In this document: piece after piece, positions 16,318 through 63,940 of the stretch
Numbering within the stretch: position 1 is the stretch's first letter
Layout of the letters: each line of letters starts with the position of its first letter
Assembly: GCA_025934695.1 (NCBI GenBank)
Contig: JAICWS010000002.1
Coordinates: forward strand, 770,230 to 834,229
Direction of reading: 5' to 3'
Source: Alphaproteobacteria bacterium
GTDB lineage: Bacteria; Pseudomonadota; Alphaproteobacteria; Micavibrionales; UBA2020
DNA length: 64,000 bases
The notes under the pieces: model-generated
What the model was told of the DNA's origin: nothing
Databases searched by the model: none
The model's input: the letters and a program-made list of their open reading frames with translations, nothing else
Made by a program: the position numbers and the translations under genes

Positions 16318-16884
16318 ATGTCAAACCAGGGACACACATCGGACACGTTGACGCATCACAGCATGCAGGGCGGCGGCGGCAAAACCAGCGGCGGCTCGAC
16401 TGTCATGGACGGAACATCGGGAAATGACTTTCTGACGGCGCCGGACAGCAGCAACTGGACGCTCAATGGACTGGACGGAAACGACAACCTGACCGGCGGA
16501 AAGGGCAACGATACGCTCAATGGCGGCACCGGCAACGACATGCTGGATGGCGAAGGCGGGCATGACATGCTGACCGGCGGCACGGGCGCCGACACCTTCG
16601 TCTTCGACAGCAATGCGGCGGGCAAAGGCGGCGACGACGTCGTGACCGACTTCAACATGCTGGACGGGGACGTCATCGATATCCAGAGCGTCGTGTCGGG
16701 CTTCGACCCCAACAACCTCGCGAACTTCGTGCAACTGACCGACGACGGCAACGGCAATACGATCGTTTCGGTAAATACCGGCAACACGCATCACGCGCAT
16801 TTCGAACAGGTCGCGACGCTGGAAGGCGTGACCGGCCTTGACGAAAGCGCGATGTTCTCCCGCGGCGCTCTTCTCGTCAACTGA
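16318..16884 (+). CDS. Calcium-binding RTX-repeat protein with a type I secretion C-terminal target domain
   Basis: Tandem GGxGxD nonapeptides (GGKGNDTLNGGTGNDMLDGEGGHDMLTGGTGADTFVF). The C-terminal block DVIDIQ...FVQLTDDGNGNTIVSVN resembles the VC_A0849-type T1SS target domain. Confidence 0.85.
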   Translation: MSNQGHTSDTLTHHSMQGGGGKTSGGSTVMDGTSGNDFLTAPDSSNWTLNGLDGNDNLTGGKGNDTLNGGTGNDMLDGEGGHDMLTGGTGADTFVFDSNAAGKGGDDVVTDFNMLDGDVIDIQSVVSGFDPNNLANFVQLTDDGNGNTIVSVNTGNTHHAHFEQVATLEGVTGLDESAMFSRGALLVN

Positions 16885-21612: not shown

Positions 21613-21733
21613 GCCAAGTCCCTTTTCCATCGCCGCCCCGGTTTTAAGACCGGGGCGGCGATTGCTTTTGGCGAAGATTCGCGGGATGGCATTTTGCTTG
21701 CCGGGTGCTACTATCCTCTCCGGGAAAGAGAGC

Positions 21734-23251
21734 ATGACCGTCCCTTATCACAACCCCATGTCGTTCTGGCTTATGCCGAGCGACGAATTCAACGAATGGC
21801 GCGCGCAGAACGATCTGCCGCAGCTCTATCGTTTTTTCGCCGGACGGCTACCGCATTTCAAAGACTGGCTCGACGAGTTCGGCATCGACGAGGAGATGTT
21901 CTGCAGGGTCGTGCCGACGGGCGCGCTGTTCTTTGGCGAGGGCCGCAAGCTGATCGCGCGCGAAGAGATCGCGAGCGAGAAGAATTCCTTCTATCGGCAC
22001 CGCAACGTCTCGGCGCACGACTTCGAGCGGCGCTATCGCGAGATGGGCCGCCCCGCGCCACCGTACAAGGAATTCGAGCCGTATTTCGCCTGGGCGAAAA
22101 AACACCTGGGGCGCGGGCGCTATTTCCGCCTCGACCCGTCGAACGAGGCGCGCATCGACGGTTTCATCTTCAACCGCTGGACGTCGCACCGCATCCCCGA
22201 AAAAAGCCGCGCGGTGCTGCTGGGCGATTTCGAGGTGCTCAAGCTGGGCGGCGTGACGCTGCAGGAACGCATCTACATGGGCAACCGCAACCTCGACTTT
22301 GCGGACCTCGATTACCTCATCATCAAGGACAAGTGGCACGGGCCCGGCGCGGTCGAGATCAATTTCTCCTCCTGCCGCCACATGGCTTTTTCCGAGACGC
22401 TTTTGTACCACTTCGAATTCCGCGGCTGCGACCTCGACCGGCTACAATGCGTTAAAAGCGACCTGGCGAACTTCAGGTTCATCGACTGCACCGGCAACCA
22501 GCCCTCCTTCAGCGACTGCCGCCTGTCCAAGGTCGCCTTCCTGCGCGGCGCTTTCTTCCCGGAATTCGAGCGTTGCGACATGAAGGACATCGTCTACAAG
22601 CCCGGCCACGGCAGCTCTCCCGCCGCCGTCTCCGACCAGTACCGGCGCCTGCGCACCGCGGCGCAGGGCGCGGGCAAGCGCCACGAAGCCTCGCAGTACT
22701 ATTACCGGGAGCGTAAATACGAACGCAAGGCGCTGGCCAGCCCCTATGCCGAGAACCCGTCGACTTTCTCCGGCTACAGCGGACGCCTGTCAGACGTCGT
22801 CGAGCGCTGGTGGAAGGGCGAGATCACCGGCGTCAAGGCGCTGCGCGATACGATCCGCATCGCGCTGTTTCATCTTGGCGTCTGGACCAGTCCGAAAACT
22901 TTTTCGAAGGCGCTGGGGTTCAAGCTGCGCTATCTCGCGTCATTGTTCGAGGAAATCGTCTGGGGCTATGGCGAACGCCCGTTGCGGATTTTCATGACGG
23001 CCTTCTCGCTGATCGGCCTTTACGCCGCGGTGTATTATTTCTTCGCGCCCGAACTGACGATGGAAGAATCGAAGGCGACGCATCTCGTCAACTCGATCTA
23101 TTTCTCGGTCATCACCTTTACGACGGTAGGCTTCGGCGATATCCTGCCCAAGACGCCGCACATGAAGCTCATCTGCGCATCGGAAGCGCTGTTCGGCTGC
23201 TTCACCATGGGCCTCGTCGTCGCCGGTTTTTCGAACAAGAGTCGCTATTGA
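21734..23251 (+). CDS. Pentapeptide-repeat domain fused to a 2-TM potassium channel pore
   Basis: Start placed at MTVPYHN. The central region has pentapeptide-like repeats (CDLDRLQCVKSDLANFRFIDCTGNQPSFSDCRLSKVAFLRGAFF). The C-terminal pore carries the selectivity filter TTVGFGD between two TM helices. Confidence 0.8.
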   Translation: MTVPYHNPMSFWLMPSDEFNEWRAQNDLPQLYRFFAGRLPHFKDWLDEFGIDEEMFCRVVPTGALFFGEGRKLIAREEIASEKNSFYRHRNVSAHDFERRYREMGRPAPPYKEFEPYFAWAKKHLGRGRYFRLDPSNEARIDGFIFNRWTSHRIPEKSRAVLLGDFEVLKLGGVTLQERIYMGNRNLDFADLDYLIIKDKWHGPGAVEINFSSCRHMAFSETLLYHFEFRGCDLDRLQCVKSDLANFRFIDCTGNQPSFSDCRLSKVAFLRGAFFPEFERCDMKDIVYKPGHGSSPAAVSDQYRRLRTAAQGAGKRHEASQYYYRERKYERKALASPYAENPSTFSGYSGRLSDVVERWWKGEITGVKALRDTIRIALFHLGVWTSPKTFSKALGFKLRYLASLFEEIVWGYGERPLRIFMTAFSLIGLYAAVYYFFAPELTMEESKATHLVNSIYFSVITFTTVGFGDILPKTPHMKLICASEALFGCFTMGLVVAGFSNKSRY

Positions 23252-23305: not shown

Positions 23306-23860
23306 ATGATTTCGGCACGCCACATTCTCGCAGCATTCATCATCACGATCGCGCTGGTGTTCGGCGCGGCGACGCAAGTGAGGGCCGACACGGCCGCGGA
23401 GCTGGATCGCGACTCGCACAACGCGCTCGCGAAGCTGTACCGCAACAATGCGACGGCGGAATCGATCGGCAAGAAAGCCAAGGCCGTCCTCATCTTCCCG
23501 AAAATCGTCAAGGCGGGCCTCGTCTTTGGCGGCAGCTACGGCGAAGGCGCGCTGATCATGGGCGGCAAGACGCAGGCCTATTACAGCTCGGCCAGCGCCT
23601 CCTGGGGATTGCAGGCGGGCGCGCAGTCCTACGGCTATGCGCTGTTCCTGATGACCGACAAGGCGATGGAATACGTGAACAAGAGCAAGGGCTGGGAAGT
23701 CGGCGTGGGCCCGACCGTCGTGATTGTGGACGCGGGCGCCGCCAAGAACCTCTCCACCTCGACGCTGAAGGACGATGCCTACGGCTTCATCTTCGGCCAG
23801 CAGGGGCTGATGGCCGGCATCAGCATCGAAGGTTCGAAGGTCACGAAGATCAAGCGCTGA
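23306..23860 (+). CDS. SYLF (Ysc84/DUF500) lipid-binding domain protein, secreted
   Basis: Signal peptide, then VLIFPKIVKAGLVFGGSYGEGALI...WGLQAGAQSYGYALFLM...GISIEGSKV, characteristic of SYLF. GGAGG SD upstream. Confidence 0.85.
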   Translation: MISARHILAAFIITIALVFGAATQVRADTAAELDRDSHNALAKLYRNNATAESIGKKAKAVLIFPKIVKAGLVFGGSYGEGALIMGGKTQAYYSSASASWGLQAGAQSYGYALFLMTDKAMEYVNKSKGWEVGVGPTVVIVDAGAAKNLSTSTLKDDAYGFIFGQQGLMAGISIEGSKVTKIKR

Positions 23861-34272: not shown

Positions 34273-35115
34273 TTACTTCTTCAACGCGAAGGGCATGATC
34301 GGCGCCGCCGTCTCGGCCATATTGACTGCCGCGCGCAGGACGAGGTTTTCGGTTTTTTCCATCAACGTAGGATTGCGGGCGTAAGACGGATCTGCGTTGA
34401 ACTTCGCCATGACCTTATCGAGGTCCGCGTCATGCTGCGCCTGCGCGGCCGCGTCCTTCTTGCGCTGATCGTTTACCTGGTCGGCATATTTCTTCGTGAA
34501 GTGGGCCTGGCCTTCGCTGTCGAAAGCGACGGTGCCTGACGCCTCGGCCGTCCTGACCTGCAGCGACGTGGGTTCTTTCTCCCGCATTTGTGTCAGCATT
34601 TTCAGCTGCGCGCCGCCGAAAAAGCTCTTGTCGAGACCTTCGGGCGTGGCGTCCGGCAGCGGCGGATCCGGATGTGCCCTGCGCTGCTTCGACAGGTAAT
34701 TGTCGGCCACCATGTCCGCCTGCTGCTCGAGGTTATAATCGAGCAGGTCCTTTTTCGGATCCGGCGTGTAGTCGTAGGCCGAGGTGTAGCAAAAGCCGGA
34801 TTTGAATTCTTCCTTGACCGCCGCAATCCGCGGGTTGAGGACATTGTTCTGGTACTGCCAGATATGCGTCATTTCATGGACGAAACGATGCACGTCGCCC
34901 TTGGAAAAATCGTCGCTGTAACTGTCCGCGCCACAATACATCTCGCCGTTGGGCGTGACTGTCGTGTCCTTCGACTGGAACATATTGCTGGTGTCGTTGT
35001 GGATGCGTACCTTGGAATAGTCGATGGAACCGCCGAAGACGGAGCGGGCAATCTCCAGCTCTCCGGGCGTCAGGCCGCGGCTTTGGCCTTTCGGCAGTTT
35101 CGGCGTGTCATCCAT
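34273..35115 (-). CDS. HExxH metallopeptidase-like protein ('vgr-related protein' type), long form
   Basis: 280 aa with no signal peptide. N-terminal LTPGELEIARSVFGGSIDYSKVRIH, zinc motif FVHEMTHIWQYQN, then DLLDYNLEQQA. Carries an extra C-terminal region relative to its paralogue. Confidence 0.8.
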   Translation of the reverse strand: MDDTPKLPKGQSRGLTPGELEIARSVFGGSIDYSKVRIHNDTSNMFQSKDTTVTPNGEMYCGADSYSDDFSKGDVHRFVHEMTHIWQYQNNVLNPRIAAVKEEFKSGFCYTSAYDYTPDPKKDLLDYNLEQQADMVADNYLSKQRRAHPDPPLPDATPEGLDKSFFGGAQLKMLTQMREKEPTSLQVRTAEASGTVAFDSEGQAHFTKKYADQVNDQRKKDAAAQAQHDADLDKVMAKFNADPSYARNPTLMEKTENLVLRAAVNMAETAAPIMPFALKK

Positions 35116-35233: not shown

Positions 35234-35818
35234 TCAGGCGGCTTTGGGCGGCTTCGGCTTGCCGAGGCCAAAGGCGGGGAAGGCGGTGCGTTTCGCATAG
35301 GCCGGATCGGCCAGGAATTTTTCCAGCACCTTTTCGTAGAGCCGGAGCTTTTCGACATCATCACAGGGATTATAGCAGCGGTCCCAGACCGAGGTGCCGC
35401 GGTCCTTCAGCACGAAGTAATCCTGAACAATGGTCGCCTGCTGCTCCATGTTGTAGTCGAGCAGGTCCTTTTTATCGTCCAGCACGTAATTGTAGGCGGC
35501 GGCGTAGTCGAACTTGTGCTTCACCGCCAGTTTCGCGGCCGTCGCAATGGGGTTCAGCACCTTGTTCTGGTACTGCCAGACATGGGTCATTTCATGCAGG
35601 AAAGTACCCTGCCACAGCGTGTCTTCCGTGCTGTAATCCGTTTTGTAGCAGCCCGGCATGAAGAGGCTGCCGTTCGGCGCCATGGCCGTGCCCTCGGGCA
35701 GAAACGGAATTCCCATGAATTTCTGATCCGAGACAGTAACTGTCGCGTAGTCGATGGAATCCGCAAAAATCGTGCGCGCGAGCGCGATTTCGCCTTTGGT
35801 CAAAGGACGCGAGACCAT
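35234..35818 (-). CDS. HExxH metallopeptidase-like protein ('vgr-related protein' type), short form
   Basis: 194 aa. Motifs LTKGEIALARTIFADSIDYATVTV, FLHEMTHVWQYQN and DLLDYNMEQQA. Colinear with 34273-35115 over its N-terminal ~130 aa; the shared ADP(S/A)YA(R/K) motif sits near the C-terminal end of both proteins. Confidence 0.8.
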   Translation of the reverse strand: MVSRPLTKGEIALARTIFADSIDYATVTVSDQKFMGIPFLPEGTAMAPNGSLFMPGCYKTDYSTEDTLWQGTFLHEMTHVWQYQNKVLNPIATAAKLAVKHKFDYAAAYNYVLDDKKDLLDYNMEQQATIVQDYFVLKDRGTSVWDRCYNPCDDVEKLRLYEKVLEKFLADPAYAKRTAFPAFGLGKPKPPKAA

Positions 35819-40752: not shown

Positions 40753-42090
40753 ATGAACAAGCCGCAGGAAAAGCCGGATGGCAACGTGGTCGACTTCAAC
40801 TCCCTTCGCAAGCCGCCGGAGATACGCCCGGCCGGGTTCCGCCCCTTCGCCGAATATCTGACCTTCCGCAACGCCGTCATGGCGCTGGCGCTCGCGACCT
40901 TCCTGATCTTCCTGGGCAGCGTCGCCTCGGCGCGCATCGCCTTCCTCTTCGCGGCGCTCCTGGGCCTTCTCGGCCTGCTGGTGCATGAAATGATGTCGCG
41001 CCGCAAGTGGGAGGCGGACCTTGTTTCCCAGCTGCAGCGCATGTCGGGCGATTACGAGCGCCTCGTGCGCGAAACCGCCCGCAACCGCAATGAATTGACC
41101 GTCCTCAAGCGCCAGCTCGCCGACGCAGGCGAGGCCGCGCGCAGCCACGGCAAGACGGGCGGCGGCGACCTGGAGCAGCGCATGGTCCGCACGCTGGCGG
41201 AGCAGCTCTCGAAGCTTGGCGACGCCCCGGAAGGGGCCGCGCCCGACCGTGCCATTTCGGCGGTCGAGGCCGGCGTCGTCGATGCGCATTCTCCGCTTAT
41301 GACGGCGACGCAGGAAACGGTCGGGCGGCTGGTGACCGACGAACAGGTGCTGGCCCTCGTGAATGCCGCGGTGCGGCAGGACCGCATCGACCTCTTCCTC
41401 CAGCCCATCGTCGCGCTGCCGCAGCGCAAACTGCGCTTTTTCGAGATGTTTTCGCGCATCCGCATCCGCGACGAAGTGTACCTTCCGGCCGAACGCTACA
41501 TCGAGGTCGCGATGCGCCAGGACCTCGTGCCCGCCATCGACAACCTGCTGCTGCTGCGCGGCCTCCAGCTGATCCGCGAGGTGCAGGACGACGCGGTGAG
41601 CGCCTTTTTCTGCAACATCACCAGCATTACCCTGAACGACCCGAAATTCATGGCCGATCTCGTCGAATTCATCGCGCAGAACCGCGGTCTCGCGCCCAGG
41701 CTCGTCTTCGAGCTGGGCCAGCGCGATCTTGCTTCCATGAGCCCCGACGTGCTGCCGATCCTCGAAGGCCTGTCGCGCCTGGGCTGCCGCTTCTCGATGG
41801 ACCAGGTGCGTTCGCTGTCCTTCGATTTCGAGCATATGGCCGTGCGGCACATCCGCTTCGTCAAGGCCGACGCGTCCATGGTGCTGAAGGAAATGAAAGA
41901 GCGTGGCGGCGCCGCGCGGCTCAAGCGCCTGAAAGCGGAAATGGACCGCAACGGCGTCGATTTCATCGTGACAAGGATAGAAACCGAGCGCGAGCTTGTC
42001 GAGCTTCTCGATCTCGGTATCGACTACGGGCAGGGCTTTTTGTTCGGCAGGCCCGCGCCGGAGCTGCTGCGCCGGCCGGAGAAGGCTTAA
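40753..42090 (+). CDS. Membrane-anchored coiled-coil protein with a degenerate EAL domain
   Basis: N-terminal TM helices, then a coiled coil. EAL-like core: QPIVALP...FFEMFSRIR, CNITS, FELGQ, MDQVRS (in place of DDFGTG), VKAD, TRIET (in place of AEGVE), GQGFLFGRP. Confidence 0.85.
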   Translation: MNKPQEKPDGNVVDFNSLRKPPEIRPAGFRPFAEYLTFRNAVMALALATFLIFLGSVASARIAFLFAALLGLLGLLVHEMMSRRKWEADLVSQLQRMSGDYERLVRETARNRNELTVLKRQLADAGEAARSHGKTGGGDLEQRMVRTLAEQLSKLGDAPEGAAPDRAISAVEAGVVDAHSPLMTATQETVGRLVTDEQVLALVNAAVRQDRIDLFLQPIVALPQRKLRFFEMFSRIRIRDEVYLPAERYIEVAMRQDLVPAIDNLLLLRGLQLIREVQDDAVSAFFCNITSITLNDPKFMADLVEFIAQNRGLAPRLVFELGQRDLASMSPDVLPILEGLSRLGCRFSMDQVRSLSFDFEHMAVRHIRFVKADASMVLKEMKERGGAARLKRLKAEMDRNGVDFIVTRIETERELVELLDLGIDYGQGFLFGRPAPELLRRPEKA

Positions 42091-42951: not shown

Positions 42952-43019
42952 TATCCTGAATTCACCTTGAAAAACAAAGAATTAAGAATAGATAAAATTT
43001 TGCATAAATGTTCGTTAAT

Positions 43020-43048
43020 TTGACGGTTTTGGGAAACCGGCGTATCAT
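43020..43048 (+). promoter_or_regulatory. Candidate sigma-70-type promoter of the DotA/TraY-like gene
   Basis: TTGACG, 17-nt spacer, TATCAT, in the AT-rich spacer about 50 nt upstream of ATG 43101. Confidence 0.4.
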
Positions 43049-43100
43049 TAAAGAATAAGCCTGAAAAGGTGTGTGTGGCTTTATTTGTCGGGGTCCAATC

Positions 43101-46100
43101 ATGAGCGAATCCAATCAGAATAATAAATTCTCCGTTGGGGCATTCCTTTTCATGCCTCAATTTAAGTACAGTTTCAGGGCGGCGGCGCACCTGTATCCCG
43201 TGTTCATCCAGCTCATCGCGACCGTTTTCGCGGCGTCGGGCCTCCTACCCAAGAACCACGAGGCCATGCGCTTCGGTTCTTCGGACGTTACGAAGAAATA
43301 CACCTTCCGCGACCTCGTCGGGGAAGCCTGGTATCACCTCCGCCGCACCCGCGCGACCCCGCGGCAGTGGGCGATGTATTTCTCCGTCCTCCTGATGATT
43401 TTCTGCTTTGCAACCGCGATCATCGGCGTCACCGGCCGCGTCTTCCTGGGCATCGGCGTTTCTGCCCAGGCGCAGCTTTTCACTCTCGGCGCGTCCAACA
43501 CCTCGATTCAGAACGGCATGTCTTCCGCTTCGTCCCTCCTCTTCGACAAGCGCATGGACCAAAGCCAGATGGGCGGTATCGGTTATAACGACTGGGGCCT
43601 GTTCATGCTCGACAAGATCGTGCGTGAATCCGCGCAGACCCCGCAGGTCGGCGGTACTCTCCAGAACGCTTTCTCCGCGATCATCCTGACCTATAACACG
43701 GCGATCACCGTTGTGGCGGCCGTGATGATCTTCTGGATCATCCTCTCCGTCGTCGTGGACACGGCCAAGACCGGCGTCCTGGGCGGCGGGCGGCATAACA
43801 TGGTCTGGGCGCCGATCCGCATCGTGTTCGCGCTCGGCCTGATGATTCCGCTCGGCTCGGCCGGTTATTCTTCGGGCCAGTATTGCGTCATGAAGCTGGC
43901 GGAATGGGGCTCGAACCTCGGCACCAACGGGTGGAACGCCTATGTGGGCGCGCTCTCGGCCAACAACGACTTCCTGGCGCCCATCATGCCGGGCGGCTCG
44001 ACGAGTCTTGTCAACGCGATCGCCGAAATGCGCCTGTGCCAGGTGGCCTATAACTCTTATGTCGTCAAGGCGACCAACCCGCCGCCGGCGCGCCAGCTTG
44101 TCGGCGCACGCAACACCTGGTCGGCCGATGGCGGCACGCTGATGCATGCGCTGACGAACGGTAACGACGCGGCGCTGTGCGGCGCTCTCAATATCGCGGC
44201 GCCTGCCGGTAACGGCGACGCGCTGATGTCGGGCACGCTCAGCAGCTGGAGCTATTCGCCAGGCGGCATGGGCACGGTGCCTCCTCGTCCCAGTGACAAT
44301 ACGAATTCGTTCCTGACGTCGCTCACGACTGCCCTGGAAGACGCCACAATCGTCGGGCTGGCCCTCGTGAACCCGATGAGCCCGCTCGGTAAAGGCTCCT
44401 CGCCCTGGATGTCCGGTTATACATTCGGCAACCCCTTTACCGCGATGGCAGGTATCGCCAGCTTCCAGGCGGCCCAGGCAACGATGCGCCAGACGATCAT
44501 CGCGAATACCCTTGGCACGCTGACAGGCACGGTCGAACCGAACATGCTGAAGTTCGCCTGCGCCTATGCTGCGCACCATGTCGTCGGCGGCACGCCGATC
44601 GTGACGGCAGCGGTTGACGTTAACCCGGTCGCGTTCACCACCATGGGCAACCTGTGCACCGGCAACCCGGATACCGACTGCGGAGCGACAGCGCTTCCGC
44701 CGCCTCCGGGTCCGGCGACGGGCGCCTACGACCCGAACTACAGCTGCCACGGCGCATCCATCGCGGCGTTCAACACGAACCTGGGCGGCGCGCTGAACGG
44801 CGCCATGACGGCTCTCCTGAGCTGGCTGACCGGCGGTAACTTCAAGTCCGAGATGCTGCAGTACGGCTGGGCAAGCGCGGGCGCGTTCTACAACAAGGTC
44901 ACGTCCATGAACGCCTCGGCGCAGGCCATGGGGCAACCCACCATTACCTATACTCCGGGCAAGCTGGGCGCGGCGATGGCGGACTGCTACAGTTCCTATT
45001 CTTCCATCGGCGACTGCCATGGCACTCACATCGACTATGAAACCGCCATGGTCATGCAGGAATATACCCGTTGGTACGAAGAATATGCAGCCACGGCGGC
45101 AGGCGCCGCCGGTCTGGGCGACGGTACGGCCAGTATCGGCCAGCAGGCCGCTCAGGCGGACAAGCCCAACGGCATGAGCATGTGGAAAATTGGCCTTGCA
45201 CTGATCAAGGGCGGTTCATCCGCAGTCGCGTCTCTCATCGAGACGTCGGTCTTCGGTCCCGACTCTCGTAACCAGCTGCTGGTCAACCTGGTGGGCAGCG
45301 TGAACGACAACACGCTTCCGCTGGCCAACCTCGCCAAGATGGGCGTCGGCATGGTCATCATGGGCGGCTCCATCATCTTCGCCTGCTCGGTTCTGCAGGG
45401 CGCGTTGGGAGCGATCCCGCTCGCCGGCACGGCCATTGCGAACAGCGCGATCTTCGCTTTCGTGACGGCGACGGCTGCGACGCTGATTTCGTCGGGCATG
45501 ATGCTGACGTTCTTCACGCCGATCATGCCTTTCATCCGGTCTGCCTTCGCGACACTGACATGGATGGTCTCCATCTTCGAGGCCGTCTGCATGGTCCCGA
45601 TCGCGGCGCTGGCGCACCTGACGACGGAAGGCGAAGGCCTTGCCGCCGGCGCGCGCCAGTGCTGGGTGCTGTGGCTGAACGTGCTGGTCAGGCCTATACT
45701 ATATGTTATGGGCTTCGTGGGCGCGTTCATCGTGTTCAACGCCTGGGTCTGCTACTTCACCACGGCGTTCGCCGCGGCCGCCGCGTCTTCCCCGATCCAG
45801 GACAACATCATCCTGCGTATCATCGCCATGTTCTTCAACTCGACGGTGTATGTGGGCACGGTATGGGCGACGGCCAACTCCTGCTTCAAGATGGTCGACA
45901 TCATCCCGAACGCCCTGATGCGCTGGATGCCGGGCGGATCGGTCGACCATAGCTTCGACGACGGCGCCCAGGCGGCCCAGGGCTATGCGCAAAGCGCGGC
46001 TTCCACCATCAGCCGCGGCTACGGCGCGGTCGCTCAGGACACCGGCTATGGCATGGGCAAGGCGGCTGGCGCGGCGACGATGACCACGACGAAGGGCGCC

Positions 46101-46286
46101 GATGGCAGCACGACCACCTCGAACTTTGCCGGCAGCGTCACACAAGCCCAGGACGGCTCGTTCCAATCAGGTACGGGCATGGCCGGAGCGGCGGCTAAGT
46201 GGGGTAATTCCAAGCAGACGGCAAGCGGCGAGAATCCCAACACCGACCAATACAACAAAACCTTCGGTGGTGGCGGCACCGGCTAA
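43101..46286 (+). CDS. DotA/TraY family-like polytopic inner-membrane protein (type IVB secretion component homologue)
   Basis: Start placed at MSESNQNN; 1061 aa. The block TAKTGVLGGGRHNMVWAPIRIVFALGLMIPLGSAGYSSGQYCVMKLAEWGS, and the C-terminal block VSIFEAVCMVPIAALAHLTTEGEGL...LNVLVRPILYVMGF, match from memory the two most conserved DotA/TraY segments. A large Gly/Ala/Thr-rich periplasmic middle region and a size of about 1000 aa also fit. Confidence 0.72.
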   Translation: MSESNQNNKFSVGAFLFMPQFKYSFRAAAHLYPVFIQLIATVFAASGLLPKNHEAMRFGSSDVTKKYTFRDLVGEAWYHLRRTRATPRQWAMYFSVLLMIFCFATAIIGVTGRVFLGIGVSAQAQLFTLGASNTSIQNGMSSASSLLFDKRMDQSQMGGIGYNDWGLFMLDKIVRESAQTPQVGGTLQNAFSAIILTYNTAITVVAAVMIFWIILSVVVDTAKTGVLGGGRHNMVWAPIRIVFALGLMIPLGSAGYSSGQYCVMKLAEWGSNLGTNGWNAYVGALSANNDFLAPIMPGGSTSLVNAIAEMRLCQVAYNSYVVKATNPPPARQLVGARNTWSADGGTLMHALTNGNDAALCGALNIAAPAGNGDALMSGTLSSWSYSPGGMGTVPPRPSDNTNSFLTSLTTALEDATIVGLALVNPMSPLGKGSSPWMSGYTFGNPFTAMAGIASFQAAQATMRQTIIANTLGTLTGTVEPNMLKFACAYAAHHVVGGTPIVTAAVDVNPVAFTTMGNLCTGNPDTDCGATALPPPPGPATGAYDPNYSCHGASIAAFNTNLGGALNGAMTALLSWLTGGNFKSEMLQYGWASAGAFYNKVTSMNASAQAMGQPTITYTPGKLGAAMADCYSSYSSIGDCHGTHIDYETAMVMQEYTRWYEEYAATAAGAAGLGDGTASIGQQAAQADKPNGMSMWKIGLALIKGGSSAVASLIETSVFGPDSRNQLLVNLVGSVNDNTLPLANLAKMGVGMVIMGGSIIFACSVLQGALGAIPLAGTAIANSAIFAFVTATAATLISSGMMLTFFTPIMPFIRSAFATLTWMVSIFEAVCMVPIAALAHLTTEGEGLAAGARQCWVLWLNVLVRPILYVMGFVGAFIVFNAWVCYFTTAFAAAAASSPIQDNIILRIIAMFFNSTVYVGTVWATANSCFKMVDIIPNALMRWMPGGSVDHSFDDGAQAAQGYAQSAASTISRGYGAVAQDTGYGMGKAAGAATMTTTKGADGSTTTSNFAGSVTQAQDGSFQSGTGMAGAAAKWGNSKQTASGENPNTDQYNKTFGGGGTG

Positions 46287-46310
46287 TAACCATCGTATTT
46301 CCAAGATTAA

Positions 46311-46346
46311 ACCGCCGGGCCTCAAAACCCCGGCGGTTCTCATTTG
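46311..46346 (+). terminator. Hairpin terminator candidate after the DotA-like gene
   Basis: ACCGCCGGG-cctcaaaac-CCCGGCGGT forms a 9-bp stem. It is followed by the weak U-tract TCTCATTTGT. Confidence 0.55.
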
Positions 46347-46448
46347 TGGGTATTTCCACGTCATCTGCCGTCCCTTGCCACCCGAGAACCCCGCCGCTAT
46401 AGTGGGACCTTATTAATTTAAGCCACTGTATTCGCGGGAGTTTATAGA

Positions 46449-58947: not shown

Positions 58948-59889
58948 TTACAGATTGAATGCCGATTTCGGCCGCTTGCCACCGCCCAGCACATAGGCCT
59001 CGTCGGCCTCGCCGCCCAGGCGCTGGAATTCGGCCAGCGCCTTGCGCAGGGCTTCCTCGTTGATACGGTCGAAGCTTTCCGGGGGCGCCAAGGTCTCGGC
59101 GCCCGTCTTCAGGTTTTCGGAGACGACCGTGCGCTCGCGCGCCTCGAAATTGAAAATCTCCGTGACCTTGCGGCCGATGCCGGGATAGAGGCCATTCAGC
59201 GCGACGCGATTTTTTCCCACGAGGCTCCAGCTTTCCGACGTCTCCGCGGACGAGGGCGCGGACGCCACGGCGGGTGTGACGGCAGGCGCGGGTGAAGGCG
59301 CGCCTTTTTGTAGCAGCTTCAGCACATGCGGCTTGGCTTTCGCGAGATCAACCGCGGTCTTTCCCGCCTTGTCCGCGATGTCGGTGCGCGCGCCCGCCTT
59401 GATCAGGCAGTCGACGGTGCTCGTCATTTCCTTCTCGACCGCCCAGTGCAGCGCCGTGCGCCCGTTGGTGCGGATGATCGCATCGAGATCGGCCTGCGCC
59501 GCGATAAGCGCCTTGACGACATCGAGGTCGCCCGCGAAAGCGGCGAGATGGATCGGATAAATGTACTCGGGGCTATGCGTGTTCGGTTTCGCGCCGCCCT
59601 CGATGAGCGCCAGCGCGGCGTTCGGCTTCTTCTCGTCCATCGCGGCCATCAAGGGCGTTTGTCCCTCGCGCGACGGAATATTGGGGTCCGCCCCGAAGCC
59701 GATCAGCATCTGGATAATCCGCACATCGCCCTTTGTCGCCGCGATATGAAGCGCAGTGAGGCCTTTGTCGTCCTGGACGTCGATGCCGAACTTGCGCGGA
59801 ATGTAATAGGTGAGGCAATGCCGGATTTCGTCTGCGTCGCCCGTGCGTGCGGCATTCAGGAAGCTTTTCTTGCTGTGGAACAGGGGCAT
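58948..59889 (-). CDS. Ankyrin-repeat protein with conserved C-terminal module (array member 1)
   Basis: Start at MPLFHSKKSFLNAARTGD (ATG 59889, 2 nt after the upstream stop). ANK repeats (GLTALHIAATKGDVRIIQMLIGFGADPN...). Pro/Ala linker. C-terminal ESWSLVG...TEIFNFEARER...ENLKTGAE...LGG...KSAFNL. Confidence 0.88.
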   Translation of the reverse strand: MPLFHSKKSFLNAARTGDADEIRHCLTYYIPRKFGIDVQDDKGLTALHIAATKGDVRIIQMLIGFGADPNIPSREGQTPLMAAMDEKKPNAALALIEGGAKPNTHSPEYIYPIHLAAFAGDLDVVKALIAAQADLDAIIRTNGRTALHWAVEKEMTSTVDCLIKAGARTDIADKAGKTAVDLAKAKPHVLKLLQKGAPSPAPAVTPAVASAPSSAETSESWSLVGKNRVALNGLYPGIGRKVTEIFNFEARERTVVSENLKTGAETLAPPESFDRINEEALRKALAEFQRLGGEADEAYVLGGGKRPKSAFNL

Positions 59890-59891
59890 GC

Positions 59892-61037
59892 TTAAGGATT
59901 GCCGGCTTGCGGTTTCAGTGTTTTCTTGGCCAGGCGCGCGCCGAAGACGGCCTCGTCGTCGGCCTTGCCGCCCAGATCGCGCAAGGCACGGAGCGCCTTG
60001 TCCAGCAGCCCCTCGGGTGTCGCATCGAAAGACATGGGCTGCGTGACGGTTTCCGCCTGCGTCCGGAGGTTTTCCGAGATGGTGAAACGCTCGCGGCTTT
60101 CGAAATTGAATACTTCCGTCAGACGGCGCAGCAGCGCCGGATGGACGCTGACGCGCGCGACCTTTTCCTCGCCCATCAGCACCCAGGCTTCCGCGTCGCT
60201 CAAGGGGAGCTCGGTCGCCGTCGCATTCAGCGGCGTGGTGCGGCTCGCGATGATTTTTTTCACATGCGGCTCGATAAGCGGCACGATCGCCGCCGCGTGA
60301 TTGGACCGCCGCGCACATTCGAGCGCATCCTGGGACTGGCTGTTGAGAATATCGACGCGCGCCCCGCGGTCGATCAGCAGCTTGACGATATCCGCCTCGC
60401 CGGCGTTGATCGCGGAGTGGAGCGCCGTATTCCTGTAGTCCGCCCGCGCGTTGATATCAGCGCCTTTGTCGAGCAGCGCCTGGGCCAGGTCAAGCTGACC
60501 ATGCATTGCCGCATAATGAAGCGGACGGTATCCATTACTGGCGCGGGCATTGGGATTCGCCCCGGCGTCGATCATGTCTCCAGCCAGTTTCCATGCGCTC
60601 TTCTCAAGCGCCTTCAACAGCGGAGCACCCTTGCTCACATCGGCTTTCGCGTCGAGCAGGAGGCGGGCGATCTCCGTGTTGCTGCCGTGGCGGTTCAGCG
60701 AAAGGCTGAGAATACTTTCGTCATTCGGCATCTCGGCGTTCGGGTCCGCCCCGGCCTTGAGCAGCGCGGCGACAATCTCCTTGGCCCCATCGGGGTTGCG
60801 CAGGACGGCAAGCGCGAGCGGCGTATAGCCAAATTGGCAGGTGGCGTCGACGGGGAATCCCGCCTGGATCAGGGCTTCCACGGTTTCGGTGTGGCCTTCC
60901 TGCGCTGCCAGGTGCAACGCAGTATTTCCATCGTTGCGCGCAGCAAGGCACACCTGCGGCTCGCGCTGCAGGTACTGCCTGACGGCGTCGGTATCGCCCC
61001 GTTCGGCGGCTTTCAGGAAATTCCGCGCGGTGAACAA
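59892..61037 (-). CDS. Ankyrin-repeat protein with conserved C-terminal module (array member 2, largest)
   Basis: Probable TTG start 61037, 7 nt after GGAG, giving (M)FTARNFLKAAERGD like its paralogues. The track start 61079 is also TTG. More ANK repeats than the other members. C-terminal EAWVLMG...TEVFNFESRER...ENLRTQAE...LGG, with a divergent tail KKTLKPQAGNP. Confidence 0.85.
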   Translation of the reverse strand: MFTARNFLKAAERGDTDAVRQYLQREPQVCLAARNDGNTALHLAAQEGHTETVEALIQAGFPVDATCQFGYTPLALAVLRNPDGAKEIVAALLKAGADPNAEMPNDESILSLSLNRHGSNTEIARLLLDAKADVSKGAPLLKALEKSAWKLAGDMIDAGANPNARASNGYRPLHYAAMHGQLDLAQALLDKGADINARADYRNTALHSAINAGEADIVKLLIDRGARVDILNSQSQDALECARRSNHAAAIVPLIEPHVKKIIASRTTPLNATATELPLSDAEAWVLMGEEKVARVSVHPALLRRLTEVFNFESRERFTISENLRTQAETVTQPMSFDATPEGLLDKALRALRDLGGKADDEAVFGARLAKKTLKPQAGNP

Positions 61038-61069
61038 TGGATTGCTCCATAAATACGGTAAACTATCGC

Positions 61070-61098
61070 AATATGGCAAGTTTTTGGCACGACGTCAA
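61070..61098 (-). promoter_or_regulatory. Candidate internal promoter in the only long spacer of the ankyrin array
   Basis: The minus strand reads TTGACG, 17-nt spacer, CATATT, ending about 30 nt upstream of the TTG 61037 start. Confidence 0.3.
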
Positions 61099-61138
61099 TT
61101 CTGTAAATTTGGCCAAAAATCAGCTTGTTAGGAAACGC

Positions 61139-62065
61139 CTACAGATTGAAGGATTTCTTCGCTGCCTTGTCGGCCGGATCTCCGCCCAGTTGCCGGAAGG
61201 CGTCCGCCGCCTGCGCGACCGCGGCATCGGACAGCATGTCGAACTTTTCCGCCGGTCCCATCGTCTCCGCGCCCGTCTTGAGGTTCTCGGTGATGACGAT
61301 GCGCTCGCGGGTCGCAAAGTTGAAAACTTGGGTGATCTTGCGCGCAAGGTCCGGGTAAACGCCGACATGGGCCGCCTTGTCCTCGCCCATGCGCTTCCAG
61401 GTCTCGCTGTCGGCGCAGGCTGCCGCCGGCGCTATCGTCGCGGCAGGAGCTGGCGCTTCTTTCCGGGGCGCCTTGAGCGCCGCGTCGATCATCGCCGCGA
61501 TGCGCGGTTTATTCTGACGCGCATAAGACGCAGGCGTGACTCCATCGGTTCCGGGAATATCGGGCCGCGCGCCCGCGTCCAGCAGGAATTGAACCATGGC
61601 GCCGCGATTTGACGCGACGGCGTAATAAAGTGGCGTACGTTCTTCCGTGGTATTGACGGGATCGATTAGGGCACCGCGCGAAATGAGGTCCTTCGCGGTG
61701 TCGAGATCGCCCAGATGAGCGGCCCAATGCAGTGCATATGAATATGTCGGAGCATGCGCATTGACGTCCGCCCCCGCCGCCATCAGGACTTTCGCGGCTT
61801 CAGGCTTTCCTTCGGAGACGGCAACGAACAGCGGCGTGGCGCCGATAGTGTTGCTGGCCTCAATGTCCGCCTTCATTTCGATCAGGAAGCGGAGCGCCTC
61901 GATCCGGCCATGCTTCGCCGCCAGGTGCAGGGCCGTATTGCCTTCCTTGTCGCGGACGCTGGCCGGCAGATATTCGGGAATATAATAGTCGTAGCAATAC
62001 TTCAGCTCGGCGACATCGCCCGCGGCGGCGGCTTTGAGGAATTTCTTCTGCGGCGATCCGAACAT
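61139..62065 (-). CDS. Ankyrin-repeat protein with conserved C-terminal module (array member 3)
   Basis: N-terminal MFGSPQKKFLKAAAAGD. ANK repeats (GNTALHLAAKHGRIEALRFLIEMKADIE...). C-terminal ETWKRMG...TQVFNFATRER...ENLKTGAE...LGG...KKSFNL. Confidence 0.88.
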   Translation of the reverse strand: MFGSPQKKFLKAAAAGDVAELKYCYDYYIPEYLPASVRDKEGNTALHLAAKHGRIEALRFLIEMKADIEASNTIGATPLFVAVSEGKPEAAKVLMAAGADVNAHAPTYSYALHWAAHLGDLDTAKDLISRGALIDPVNTTEERTPLYYAVASNRGAMVQFLLDAGARPDIPGTDGVTPASYARQNKPRIAAMIDAALKAPRKEAPAPAATIAPAAACADSETWKRMGEDKAAHVGVYPDLARKITQVFNFATRERIVITENLKTGAETMGPAEKFDMLSDAAVAQAADAFRQLGGDPADKAAKKSFNL

Positions 62066-62077
62066 GACGTCCTGCGC

Positions 62078-63025
62078 TTAAAGGTTGAAGGCTTTTTTGG
62101 CGCCCTTGTCGGGCTGCTCGCCGCCCAGCGACTTCAGCTTCTCGGCCGCCCGCGCGAGAATGTCGGGGGAAAGGGCGTCGAACTTTTCGGGCGGCGTCAT
62201 GGTCTCGGCCGCGGTCTTCAGGTTCTCGGTGATGACCGTGCGTTCGCCCGCGGTGAAATTGAAGATCTCGGTCAGCTTGCGGGAAATGGGCGGATAGACG
62301 TTGACATGCGCAAGCGTGTCCGGGGCCAGCAGCATCCAGCTCTCGCCCGCGACGATCGGCTCGTTTGCGGGCGCTTGTGCGGCTGCGGGCTGCGAGACCG
62401 GCACCGGCGCATGCATGCCGCGTTTCTGGGCCGCTTCGATCATTTCCTGCAGCGCCTTGCTACCGATCGCCTTCGCGCGGTCCCAGGCGACGTAATTGTT
62501 GCTGTCCTTCATGTCCGTGCGCGCCCCCTGGTCGAGCAGGAACTGCGCTTCGGGGTTGCGGCGGTTTTCGACCGCCATGTGCAGCGGCGTCTGGAGATAG
62601 CTGCGCGTCACCACGTTGAGGTCCGCGCCCGCGCCCGCCAGCGCCTTGACGGCATCGAGATCGCCGTTGCGCGCCGCCCAGTGCAGCGGATAATAATAGT
62701 CGTTGTCGTGCGCGCTGACGTTCGCGCCCGCCGCGACGAGAAGCTTCGTGGCCTCCGTGCAGCGGTTGTAGCAGGCCCACCACAGGGCGGTGCGTCCCGA
62801 ACTGTCGGCGATTTCCAGGTCGGCCTTCTTCGCGATCAGGATCTTCAGCGTGTCGACCGCGCCCGCCTTGGCCGCGAGGATCAGCGCCGTGCGGCCCGCG
62901 CCGCCGCGCACGTTGATGTCGTATTGCGAAGGAATGTCCTGCGACAGGCAGCGGTTGAGCTCGGCCACATCGCCGCCTGAGGCGGCATTGAGGAATTTTT
63001 TCTGCGGTGAGGATCCGAACATCAT
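62078..63025 (-). CDS. Ankyrin-repeat protein with conserved C-terminal module (array member 4)
   Basis: N-terminal MMFGSSPQKKFLNAASGGD. ANK repeats. C-terminal ESWMLLA...TEIFNFTAGER...ENLKTAAE...LGG...KKAFNL. Confidence 0.88.
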   Translation of the reverse strand: MMFGSSPQKKFLNAASGGDVAELNRCLSQDIPSQYDINVRGGAGRTALILAAKAGAVDTLKILIAKKADLEIADSSGRTALWWACYNRCTEATKLLVAAGANVSAHDNDYYYPLHWAARNGDLDAVKALAGAGADLNVVTRSYLQTPLHMAVENRRNPEAQFLLDQGARTDMKDSNNYVAWDRAKAIGSKALQEMIEAAQKRGMHAPVPVSQPAAAQAPANEPIVAGESWMLLAPDTLAHVNVYPPISRKLTEIFNFTAGERTVITENLKTAAETMTPPEKFDALSPDILARAAEKLKSLGGEQPDKGAKKAFNL

Positions 63026-63031
63026 TGCACC

Positions 63032-63940
63032 TTAAAGGTTAAAAGCTTTCTTCTGGCCGCGCTCGGGAGGCTGGCCGCCCAGGCTTTTCAGCCGGTCTTC
63101 GGCGCGTCCCACCACCTCCTCGCCCAGAGTTTCGAATTTTTCGGGCTGCGCCAGGCTTTCCGCGCCGGTCTTCAGGTTTTCTGCGATGATGACGCGCTCG
63201 CGGTTCTCGAAATTGAAGATCTCGGTGATCCGGCGGCCCATCGATGGATAGTCGGCGATATGCGCCACGCGCGCCGCGCCCATGAGCTTCCAGCTATCGC
63301 CATCTTCCGCCGGAGAAGTTTCGGCTTGCGGCGCTTTCTGTTTCGCGGCGGCGGTGATGATATTCAGGAGGCGGTCGGTTCTCTTGTCGCGCGCATGGTC
63401 GGCAGGCGTCTTGTTGTCGCGGTCGGCGATATCAGTGCGCGCGTGGCTCGCCATCAGGAATTCGACGACCGGCCCGTGGCCGTTGATGACCGCCCAATGG
63501 AGGGCGGTGCGGCCGGTTTCCTTGCTGACGGCATTCAGGTCGGCGCCCGCTGAAACAAGGTCTTTGACGACATCGAGCTGGCCGTAGCGCGCGGCGGTCA
63601 GCAGCGGCGAGACATAGCTGGTCGTATGCGTGTTGACGTCGGCGCCCGACGCGATCAGGAAACGCGCCACGGCGGTCTTGTCGTTGGTGATGGCGATGTG
63701 CAGCGGTGTCTTGCCGTCGCCGTCGGAGATGTTCAGGTCGGCCTTCGCTTCGACCAGCGCTTTGACCGCGTCAAGCTGGCCGCTTTCGGCCGCCAGATAC
63801 AAAGCCGTTTTACCGCTGCCGTTTTTGACGTCGACGCTGAAGTTGCCCGGAACCAGGGCGGAAAGGCAATATAGCAGCTCCGCCATGTCGCCTTTCGCCG
63901 CGGCCTTCAGAAAGGATTTTTTCGAGCTGATGAAAGCCAT
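63032..63940 (-). CDS. Ankyrin-repeat protein with conserved C-terminal module (array member 5)
   Basis: N-terminal MAFISSKKSFLKAAAKGD. ANK repeats (GKTALYLAAESGQLDAVKALVEAKADLN...). C-terminal DSWKLMG...TEIFNFENRER...ENLKTGAE...LGG...KKAFNL. Confidence 0.88.
   Translation of the reverse strand: MAFISSKKSFLKAAAKGDMAELLYCLSALVPGNFSVDVKNGSGKTALYLAAESGQLDAVKALVEAKADLNISDGDGKTPLHIAITNDKTAVARFLIASGADVNTHTTSYVSPLLTAARYGQLDVVKDLVSAGADLNAVSKETGRTALHWAVINGHGPVVEFLMASHARTDIADRDNKTPADHARDKRTDRLLNIITAAAKQKAPQAETSPAEDGDSWKLMGAARVAHIADYPSMGRRITEIFNFENRERVIIAENLKTGAESLAQPEKFETLGEEVVGRAEDRLKSLGGQPPERGQKKAFNL

Follow-up and report, generated by a model that had tools for sequence, protein, structure and literature searches.

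The DNA analysed here (the window) was a stretch of 64,000 nucleotides (nt) from an Alphaproteobacteria bacterium of the Micavibrionales (contig JAICWS010000002.1, assembly GCA_025934695.1). At 43101..46286 (+) it carried a gene whose product, 1061 amino acids plus the stop codon, belonged genuinely to the DotA/TraY family, as a VirB6-equivalent polytopic inner-membrane protein, but was no equivalog of Legionellales DotA. It represents a chromosomal DotA/TraY subfamily, large and not described until now, of uncultured Micavibrio-like and other Alphaproteobacteria. Its gene has been passed on vertically at a fixed position among housekeeping genes, with EAL and HAD genes on one side and yejABEF on the other. 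Conservation in coding and flanking DNA indicated purifying selection on the gene and a transcription unit of its own. We favour, tentatively and at slightly less than an even chance, the interpretation that the subfamily functions in the absence of a genetically linked type IVB secretion system (T4BSS).

Family membership followed from three lines of evidence: the score against the family model, the similarity to a solved DotA and the predicted fold. The first-pass annotation, made from the letters of the window and its open reading frames, had proposed a DotA/TraY-like product from its size, its topology and two sequence blocks, and all three lines agreed with that call. In a whole-protein search with hidden Markov models, one of the checks that the annotation had suggested, TIGR04346 (DotA_TraY) gave 211.1 bits (cut-off 100, E 3.2e-62). 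NF033886, the equivalog model of Legionellales DotA, gave 131.5 bits, under its cut-off of 500, with residues 185-945 aligned to positions 21-787 of the 790 in the model. A Pfam search of the protein returned zero family matches, TrbL/VirB6 included. The sole match among all PDB chains searched with phmmer was DotA of L. pneumophila (9ngy/9nh0, E 2.8e-10), which aligned in two blocks: residues 193-285 with DotA 59-150, and residues 738-888 with DotA 683-835. The conserved segments predicted for the family fell within these blocks. The first fitted its predicted pattern, with GGRHNMVWAPIR at residue 229 and MIPLGSAGYSSGQYCVM at residue 248; the second fitted in part, with FEAVCMVPIAALAHLTTEG at residue 826 as predicted but LVRP in place of the expected (F/V)LRP in its last motif (LNVLVRPIL at residue 859).

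An AlphaFold2 model was built from an alignment of 57 sequences (mean predicted local distance difference test, pLDDT, 73; predicted template modelling score 0.64). The only Foldseek match in PDB with E<=0.001 was DotA of the in-situ DotA-IcmX protochannel (9ngy_FP1; E 1e-11, probability 1.00, 949 aligned columns). The next matches were VirB6/TrwI of the R388 type IV secretion system (T4SS) (PDB 7o3v and 8rtd; E 0.2-1.8, not significant). VirB6, the structural equivalent of DotA, is pentameric and sits at the base of the central T4SS channel; VirB6/TrwI was the functional and positional counterpart as well as the runner-up structural match, but its chains are far smaller (~260 amino acids), superposed on the query with a template modelling score of only ~0.1 and had no sequence-level match to it.

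The likeness to L. pneumophila DotA extended over both signature blocks and across the 949 structurally aligned columns, and included the order of parts: a transmembrane pair, next a large extended domain with cysteines, and last a set of long hydrophobic helices. The disulfide-rich extended domain of Legionella DotA spans residues 154-685. There were also clear differences, however. Identity in the structural alignment was ~15%, the NF033886 score was well under its cut-off, the window protein added a ~180-residue N-terminal extension with two hydrophobic helices and ended in a disordered Gly/Ala/Thr/Ser-rich tail, and its gene, which is alphaproteobacterial and present in tandem multiples in some lineages, had no icmV/W/X or other dot/icm gene beside it.

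The open reading frame occupied 43071..46286 (+) and encoded 1071 amino acids when counted from a GTG, or 1061 from the ATG at 43101. The ATG is likely to be the true start, rather than the GTG at 43071, because ATGAGC and a GGGG Shine-Dalgarno sequence 8 nt upstream were kept in relatives and because the GTG sat within a conserved non-coding leader. Hydropathy and the AlphaFold model placed hydrophobic helices at residues ~27-50, ~89-122, ~190-228 and ~233-255, followed by a hydrophilic stretch of ~485 residues and a C-terminal hydrophobic bundle at 741-921; the topology read in the first-pass annotation (N-terminal transmembrane helices, a large middle region and a C-terminal transmembrane bundle) was recovered in this way. 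The third-position GC content (GC3) of the coding sequence (0.82) was as in the adjacent genes, and so was its overall GC content.

Five regions were distinguished along the protein. The subfamily-specific N-terminal extension (residues 1-184, 43101..43652 (+)) comprised the first two, extra, hydrophobic helices and a basic loop, and was common to the members of the clade. It lay outside the DotA-homologous region, was modelled with pLDDT >80 at residues 31-100 and showed 13-14% identity to plasmid TraY, which is noise level. Membrane core block 1 (residues 185-290, 43653..43970 (+)), with the motif GGRHNMVWAPIR...MIPLGSAGYSSGQYCVM, contained the helix pair equivalent to TM1/TM2 of DotA. The variable extended domain, predicted to be periplasmic (residues 291-735, 43971..45305 (+)), contained the conserved Cys313, Cys360, Cys487 and Cys519. 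The C-terminal hydrophobic helix bundle (residues 736-945, 45306..45935 (+)), with the motif FEAVCMVPIAALAHLTTEGEG...LNVLVRPIL, was equivalent to HH1-HH5 of DotA and formed long helices in the model at 740-770, 783-838, 852-896 and 903-928. The C-terminal tail (residues 946-1061, 45936..46283 (+)) was rich in Gly, Ala, Thr and Ser (21, 17, 13 and 10%, respectively) and predicted to be disordered, with pLDDT <50 for most residues and no conservation in relatives.

Conservation within the clade followed these regions. Identity to clade members was 32-72% in the N-terminal 160 residues, 55-93% at residues 161-290, 18-51% with many indels in the middle (291-735) and 36-76% in the C-terminal bundle (736-945). 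Fifty-four columns were invariant across 57 sequences, which indicates that the DotA-like gene is under purifying selection. The invariant residues included R231, H232, N233, W236, P238 and R240 in core block 1, Cys313, Cys360 and Cys487 in the middle domain (Cys519 was nearly invariant), and W821, F826, P833, R864 and P865 in the C-terminal bundle.

Homologue searches returned proteins from uncultured Alphaproteobacteria only, the closest 63-72% identical and most 33-45% identical. At E<=1e-3 an exhaustive phmmer search gave 4065 representative clusters, of which 553 reached E<=1e-30, and most of the top 150 representative hits began matching at residue 1-15. Related proteins of metagenome-assembled genomes are already labelled “DotA/TraY family protein” by the NCBI pipeline; no report on DotA or a T4BSS in Micavibrio/Micavibrionales was found in literature searches, the coverage of which was not exhaustive. 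The names given to the related genomes were inconsistent: Micavibrio sp., Bdellovibrionales bacterium, Rhodospirillaceae, Alphaproteobacteria and, for one contig (L025; related loci are numbered with the prefix L), “Patescibacteria group”. The “Bdellovibrionales” labels arise because NCBI taxonomy (taxid 213485) places Micavibrio in Bdellovibrionota. L025 had the HAD-promoter-DotA-like arrangement of the other loci, and its bin assignment therefore looks wrong.

The first-pass annotation had described an orphan chromosomal dotA. The gene did stand alone in the window, but it was no oddity of a single genome. When species-representative loci were fetched and their contigs gene-called, the order SURF1-M32-thrC-pyrD-EAL-HAD-[DotA-like x1-4]-yejABEF-IOR (IOR, indolepyruvate:ferredoxin oxidoreductase) was seen in at least 17 loci with both flanks visible, each in another assembly, and in part in several more. 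In most of these syntenic loci the DotA-like protein was 30-36% identical to that of the window, and the flanking housekeeping proteins were 55-90% identical. Other members were found elsewhere: L017, L023 and L024 were flanked by genes for CitMHS, Omp85, FtsH, PGM, NAD kinase and xanthine dehydrogenase, and the distant members L052-L056 (25-30% identity) by malate synthase, thrC, PEP carboxylase, recJ, recA and dnaJ. A functional coupling of the DotA-like gene to yejABEF or to EAL-HAD was considered and found unsupported, as the non-syntenic members lacked those neighbours.

One derived sublineage carried two to four tandem paralogues of 947-1451 amino acids (L003/L026, L006, L007, L010, L002, L004, L013, L016, L050 and L055), the third copy always being the longest (~1260-1450 amino acids). 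Tandem copies grouped by their position in the array across genomes, which marks the duplications as old and retained. In a simple neighbour-joining (distance) tree the single-copy lineages, the window included, branched basally, and the chromosomal clade was monophyletic with plasmid TraY outside it. TraY of R64 (IncI1) and the other plasmid DotA/TraY proteins shared TIGR04346 and the C-terminal core block (25-36% identity) with the window protein. They differed in that only the core blocks matched (23-30% identity over the two blocks, with at most about half of the query covered), that the N-terminal extension was missing, and that their genes sit on mobile replicons, whereas the gene of the window was fixed in a housekeeping locus. 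The plasmid neighbourhoods used as positive controls (Bosea, Acetobacter and Klebsiella) were too sparsely annotated to show named T4BSS partners.

No linked secretion genes were found. The annotation covered every sizeable gene of the window, and no other T4SS family was among them; the earlier statement that other T4BSS genes are missing within 20 kb on either side therefore held and extends to all 64 kb. An IcmX-like gene was not seen near the locus. Among ~35 related DotA-like contexts, representing at least 8 different neighbourhoods, zero T4SS genes lay within +/-10 kb. The window also had no integrase by the DotA-like gene and no repeats flanking it, its sole tRNA gene was 19 kb away, and libraries of defence systems and phages gave zero matches to it.

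Upstream of the gene, a sigma-70-type promoter-like element, TTGACG-17-TATCAT, lay at 43020..43048 (+), with the conserved spacer GTTTTgGGAAAccGGCG. It corresponds to the near-consensus promoter of the first-pass annotation and matched 10/12 consensus positions. As a bare consensus the match was weak (2 sites found vs. 1.1 expected), but with the conserved spacer it was the single match in the window (0.01 expected), and conservation across the clade supported it strongly. The pattern TTGACSNTTTTNRGAAANNNNNNTATSAT was present in 15 fetched loci, each time directly 5' of a DotA-like gene. A metagenome-wide scan with the pattern gave 19 matches, two of them clade-like and both before DotA-like open reading frames, the other 17 being low-GC background. 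Ten nt 5' of the -35 hexamer lay a conserved A/T-rich box, AAAATTTTGCATAAAT (42994..43009 (+)), which was invariant in the window, L001, L027, L014 and L020; TTTTGCA or a near variant preceded many DotA-like copies across the clade. The box may serve as an UP-like element or, alternatively, as a site for a regulator.

Between promoter and start codon, the leader AAAGAATAAGCCTGAA...GTCGGGGTCCAA (43049..43100 (+); GGGG Shine-Dalgarno at 43090-43093) was nearly invariant in five genomes and recognisable in 18 copies. In all, ~110 nt before the ATG were nearly invariant among five genomes whose proteins are 45-66% identical. The element with the spacer GTTTTAnGAAAAAGGCG, the AAAATTTTGCATAAAT box and the leader AAAGAATAAGCCTGAA...GTCGGGG preceded first copies and many tandem copies clade-wide. 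The AAAATTTTGCATAAAT box, TTGAC-GGTTTTAnGAAAAAGGCG-TATCAT and the leader AAAGAATAAGCCTGAA were kept even where proteins are only ~35% identical (L001-L028, L032, L037, L050 and L051), a TTAAGCC-like leader motif persisted in the distant members L052 and L055, and the promoter region was duplicated along with the tandem copies. The spacer conservation suggests an operator-like sequence, a candidate regulator-binding site, and the conserved region as a whole points to a putative dedicated regulator. A leader RNA element was also considered and was rejected, since the leader had zero matches in Rfam and no covarying structure was found in it. The shared promoter gave no partner genes either: in the fetched loci and the clade-like metagenome matches the pattern occurred only before DotA-like genes.

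Downstream, an intrinsic-terminator-like hairpin, AACCGCCGGG-N9-CCCGGCGGTT followed by CTCATTTGT, occupied 46310..46347 (+), the hairpin proper being at 46310-46338. It had a 10-bp stem (-21.8 kcal/mol, z -3.35) that was kept in L001, L027 and L014, where the T-tracts were better, and it bore out the terminator proposed in the first-pass annotation. A second promoter-like site, TTGCCA-17-TATAGT, lay between hairpin and yejA (46375-46403 (+)) and was kept in L001 and L027, so that yejABEF seems to form a transcript of its own, apart from the DotA-like gene. As promoter, spacer, leader and terminator were all conserved, these signals mark the DotA-like gene as a single transcription unit, bounded by a clade-wide promoter and a conserved hairpin.

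The neighbours named earlier, genes for an EAL protein and a HAD hydrolase upstream and yejABEF downstream, were confirmed by annotation. The upstream side held an alaS fragment, ndk, a two-component system, kup, a porin, a hybrid histidine kinase, pfk, rnpA, yidC, ctaCDBGE, SURF1, an M32 carboxypeptidase, thrC, pyrD, the EAL protein and a HAD-IIA hydrolase. The EAL gene (40753-42090 (+)) had its best match, over the full length, to the alphaproteobacterial flagellar placement factor TipF (207 bits, cut-off 600). Between ctaE and SURF1, two adjacent paralogous genes (34273-35115 (-) and 35234-35818 (-)) shared a HEMTHxWQYQN motif (HExxH, metalloprotease-like); the pair had only a weak DUF6782 match and was syntenic in this position in most related loci. 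Further upstream, a small RTX protein (hemolysin-type calcium-binding repeats), a pentapeptide repeat-ion-channel fusion and a Ysc84-like protein were encoded at 16318-16884, 21662-23251 and 23306-23860 (all +); RTX proteins are candidate predation factors in the genome paper of M. aeruginosavorus.

Downstream of yejABEF and of a gene of the indolepyruvate:ferredoxin oxidoreductase type, the ankyrin array reported in the first-pass annotation proved to consist of five tandem ankyrin-repeat genes (58.9-63.9 kb; 58948-63940 (-)). None of the products had an N-terminal signal peptide, the full-length ones started with MFGSPQKKFLKAAA, and at least four ended in a common motif, LGG-x(6-10)-K(K/S)(A/S)FNL*. 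This C-terminus could be an export signal or could reflect mere paralogy. Models of Legionella Ank effectors gave repeat-level matches only, far under their cut-offs. L010, L015 and L021, too, had ankyrin genes in the vicinity of the DotA-like locus.

Our reading, that the subfamily functions with no genetically linked type IVB apparatus, was based on the fact that T4SS genes were missing throughout at least 8 distinct neighbourhoods, on the single-gene unit with its private promoter, on the subfamily-specific N-terminal module, and on the promoter element, which was found before no other gene in the window, the fetched loci or the clade-like metagenome matches. By homology to the Legionella DotA pentamer, the DotA-like protein would assemble into an oligomeric inner-membrane chamber, a “protochannel”, capped in the periplasm by the variable extended domain. 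This chamber would act as a gated conduit moving macromolecules out of the cytoplasm, and the two-helix N-terminal module would replace or recruit the missing partners. Since the membrane helices were conserved and the extended domain was variable, a chamber with a fast-diversifying periplasmic cap is the arrangement proposed. It is by inference only that the protein oligomerises, acts as a channel and does without the other Dot/Icm proteins.

Several points weigh against this proposal. Oligomeric state and channel function are taken from homology alone. The AlphaFold2 monomer superposed loosely on DotA (template modelling score 0.35-0.42), the DotA compared being in its in-situ pentamer conformation. 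We know of no DotA or VirB6 homologue that acts alone. The linkage data covered the 64-kb window, a part of a 1.22-Mb contig, and loci of +/-10 kb, leaving room for a dispersed Dot/Icm-like set. Ankyrin proteins without a signal peptide fit some effector export route. The genome paper of M. aeruginosavorus ARL-13 reports neither a type III secretion system nor a T4SS, but this statement cannot be carried over to the gene of the window, because a homologue was not found there: two protein searches and the supplements of the genome paper gave no named one. Finally, the protochannel of Legionella, a pentamer of DotA with IcmX, needs DotG and IcmX for the assembly of DotA, and the T4SS genes of Rickettsiales are scattered in conserved islets, with VirB6 tandemly duplicated within a working system.

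These last two points are also the starting point of the principal rival, which we regard as only somewhat less likely than the favoured reading: the protein would serve as DotA in a complete type IVB system whose other genes are dispersed as in the rvh “archipelago” of Rickettsiales, and which exports effectors, the ankyrin proteins for example, into a eukaryotic host or prey. Besides the dependence on DotG and IcmX, the channel-core residues conserved with canonical DotA are in its favour, as are the ankyrin genes, which encode no signal peptide, share a C-terminus and recur near three related loci. All relatives found were uncultured, as is expected of host- or prey-dependent bacteria. The T4SS of Rickettsia lies in five conserved islets and has five tandem VirB6 paralogues (674-1154 amino acids), which resemble the 3-4 tandem DotA-like paralogues seen here. 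RvhB6 of the rvh system (type IVA, its genes scattered over the chromosome) is likewise an alphaproteobacterial family of large tandem channel-subunit homologues with divergent flanking domains and vertical inheritance. It differs, however, in belonging to VirB6/TrbL and not to DotA/TraY (the Foldseek matches to VirB6/TrwI were not significant), and its array adjoins virB3-virB4, whereas the DotA-like genes had no T4SS neighbour in any of the ~35 contexts and at least 8 neighbourhoods. Legionella dotA, too, adjoins icmVWX. The conserved promoter/operator was found before no other gene in the window, the fetched loci or the clade-like metagenome matches, and the literature searches, not exhaustive in coverage, found no T4BSS report for the lineage.

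That the protein is an accessory of some other envelope machine, such as a type IVA system without VirB6, type IV pili/type II secretion or the flagellum, is improbable. The TipF match of the EAL neighbour, one distant member near fliQ/fliR/flhB, and the structural equivalence of DotA and VirB6, with VirB6/TrwI as next-best Foldseek match, would fit such a role, but the TipF score was far under its cut-off, the linkage to EAL did not extend to L023, L024 or the distant members, so that plain synteny is the likelier cause, the VirB6 fold matches were not significant, and zero type IVA genes were seen in any locus viewed.

It is hardly conceivable that the gene came by recent transfer with an IncI-type plasmid or integrative and conjugative element that integrated, and is now a relocated or decaying remnant with no function: alphaproteobacterial plasmids often carry DotA/TraY genes (those of Bosea, Acetobacter, Roseomonas and Methylosinus, for instance), but the vertical inheritance and syntenic fixation of the gene across the clade (the same slot in at least 17 assemblies, at deep divergence) rule out a recently relocated conjugation gene, and the intact reading frame with its invariant columns and conserved promoter, the host-like GC3, the lack of an integrase, nearby tRNA or flanking repeats, and the low, two-block identity of plasmid homologues outside a monophyletic chromosomal clade leave recent transfer effectively refuted.

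The proposal of a channel without a linked type IVB apparatus can be taken further, to a version that we consider unlikely though worth stating. The subfamily would then consist of autonomous channels of the cell envelope, derived by exaptation from an ancestral type IVB system and working with no further Dot/Icm component. In Micavibrio-like epibiotic predators or other host-dependent Alphaproteobacteria they would be the conduit by which proteins reach the attached prey or host cell, or by which material is drawn from it. Candidate cargo would be the signal-peptide-less ankyrin proteins with the KK(A/S)FNL C-terminus, and the fast-evolving, tandemly diversified periplasmic domain might reflect an arms race with the targets.

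DotA, the VirB6 equivalent, was only recently shown to be the central gate of the Dot/Icm machine of Legionella. The conserved promoter/operator of the subfamily described here offers a direct handle for finding its putative regulator. To our knowledge, DotA has been studied only within complete type IVB systems. Should the dispersed arrangement apply, uncultured Alphaproteobacteria may harbour type IVB-like machines far more often, and in a more scattered genetic layout, than is recognised; should the subfamily work without such a system, a channel subunit may lead an existence of its own, apart from any T4SS. Both outcomes matter for the assembly and gating of these channels, and may also matter for the interaction of Micavibrio-like predators or symbionts with their targets.

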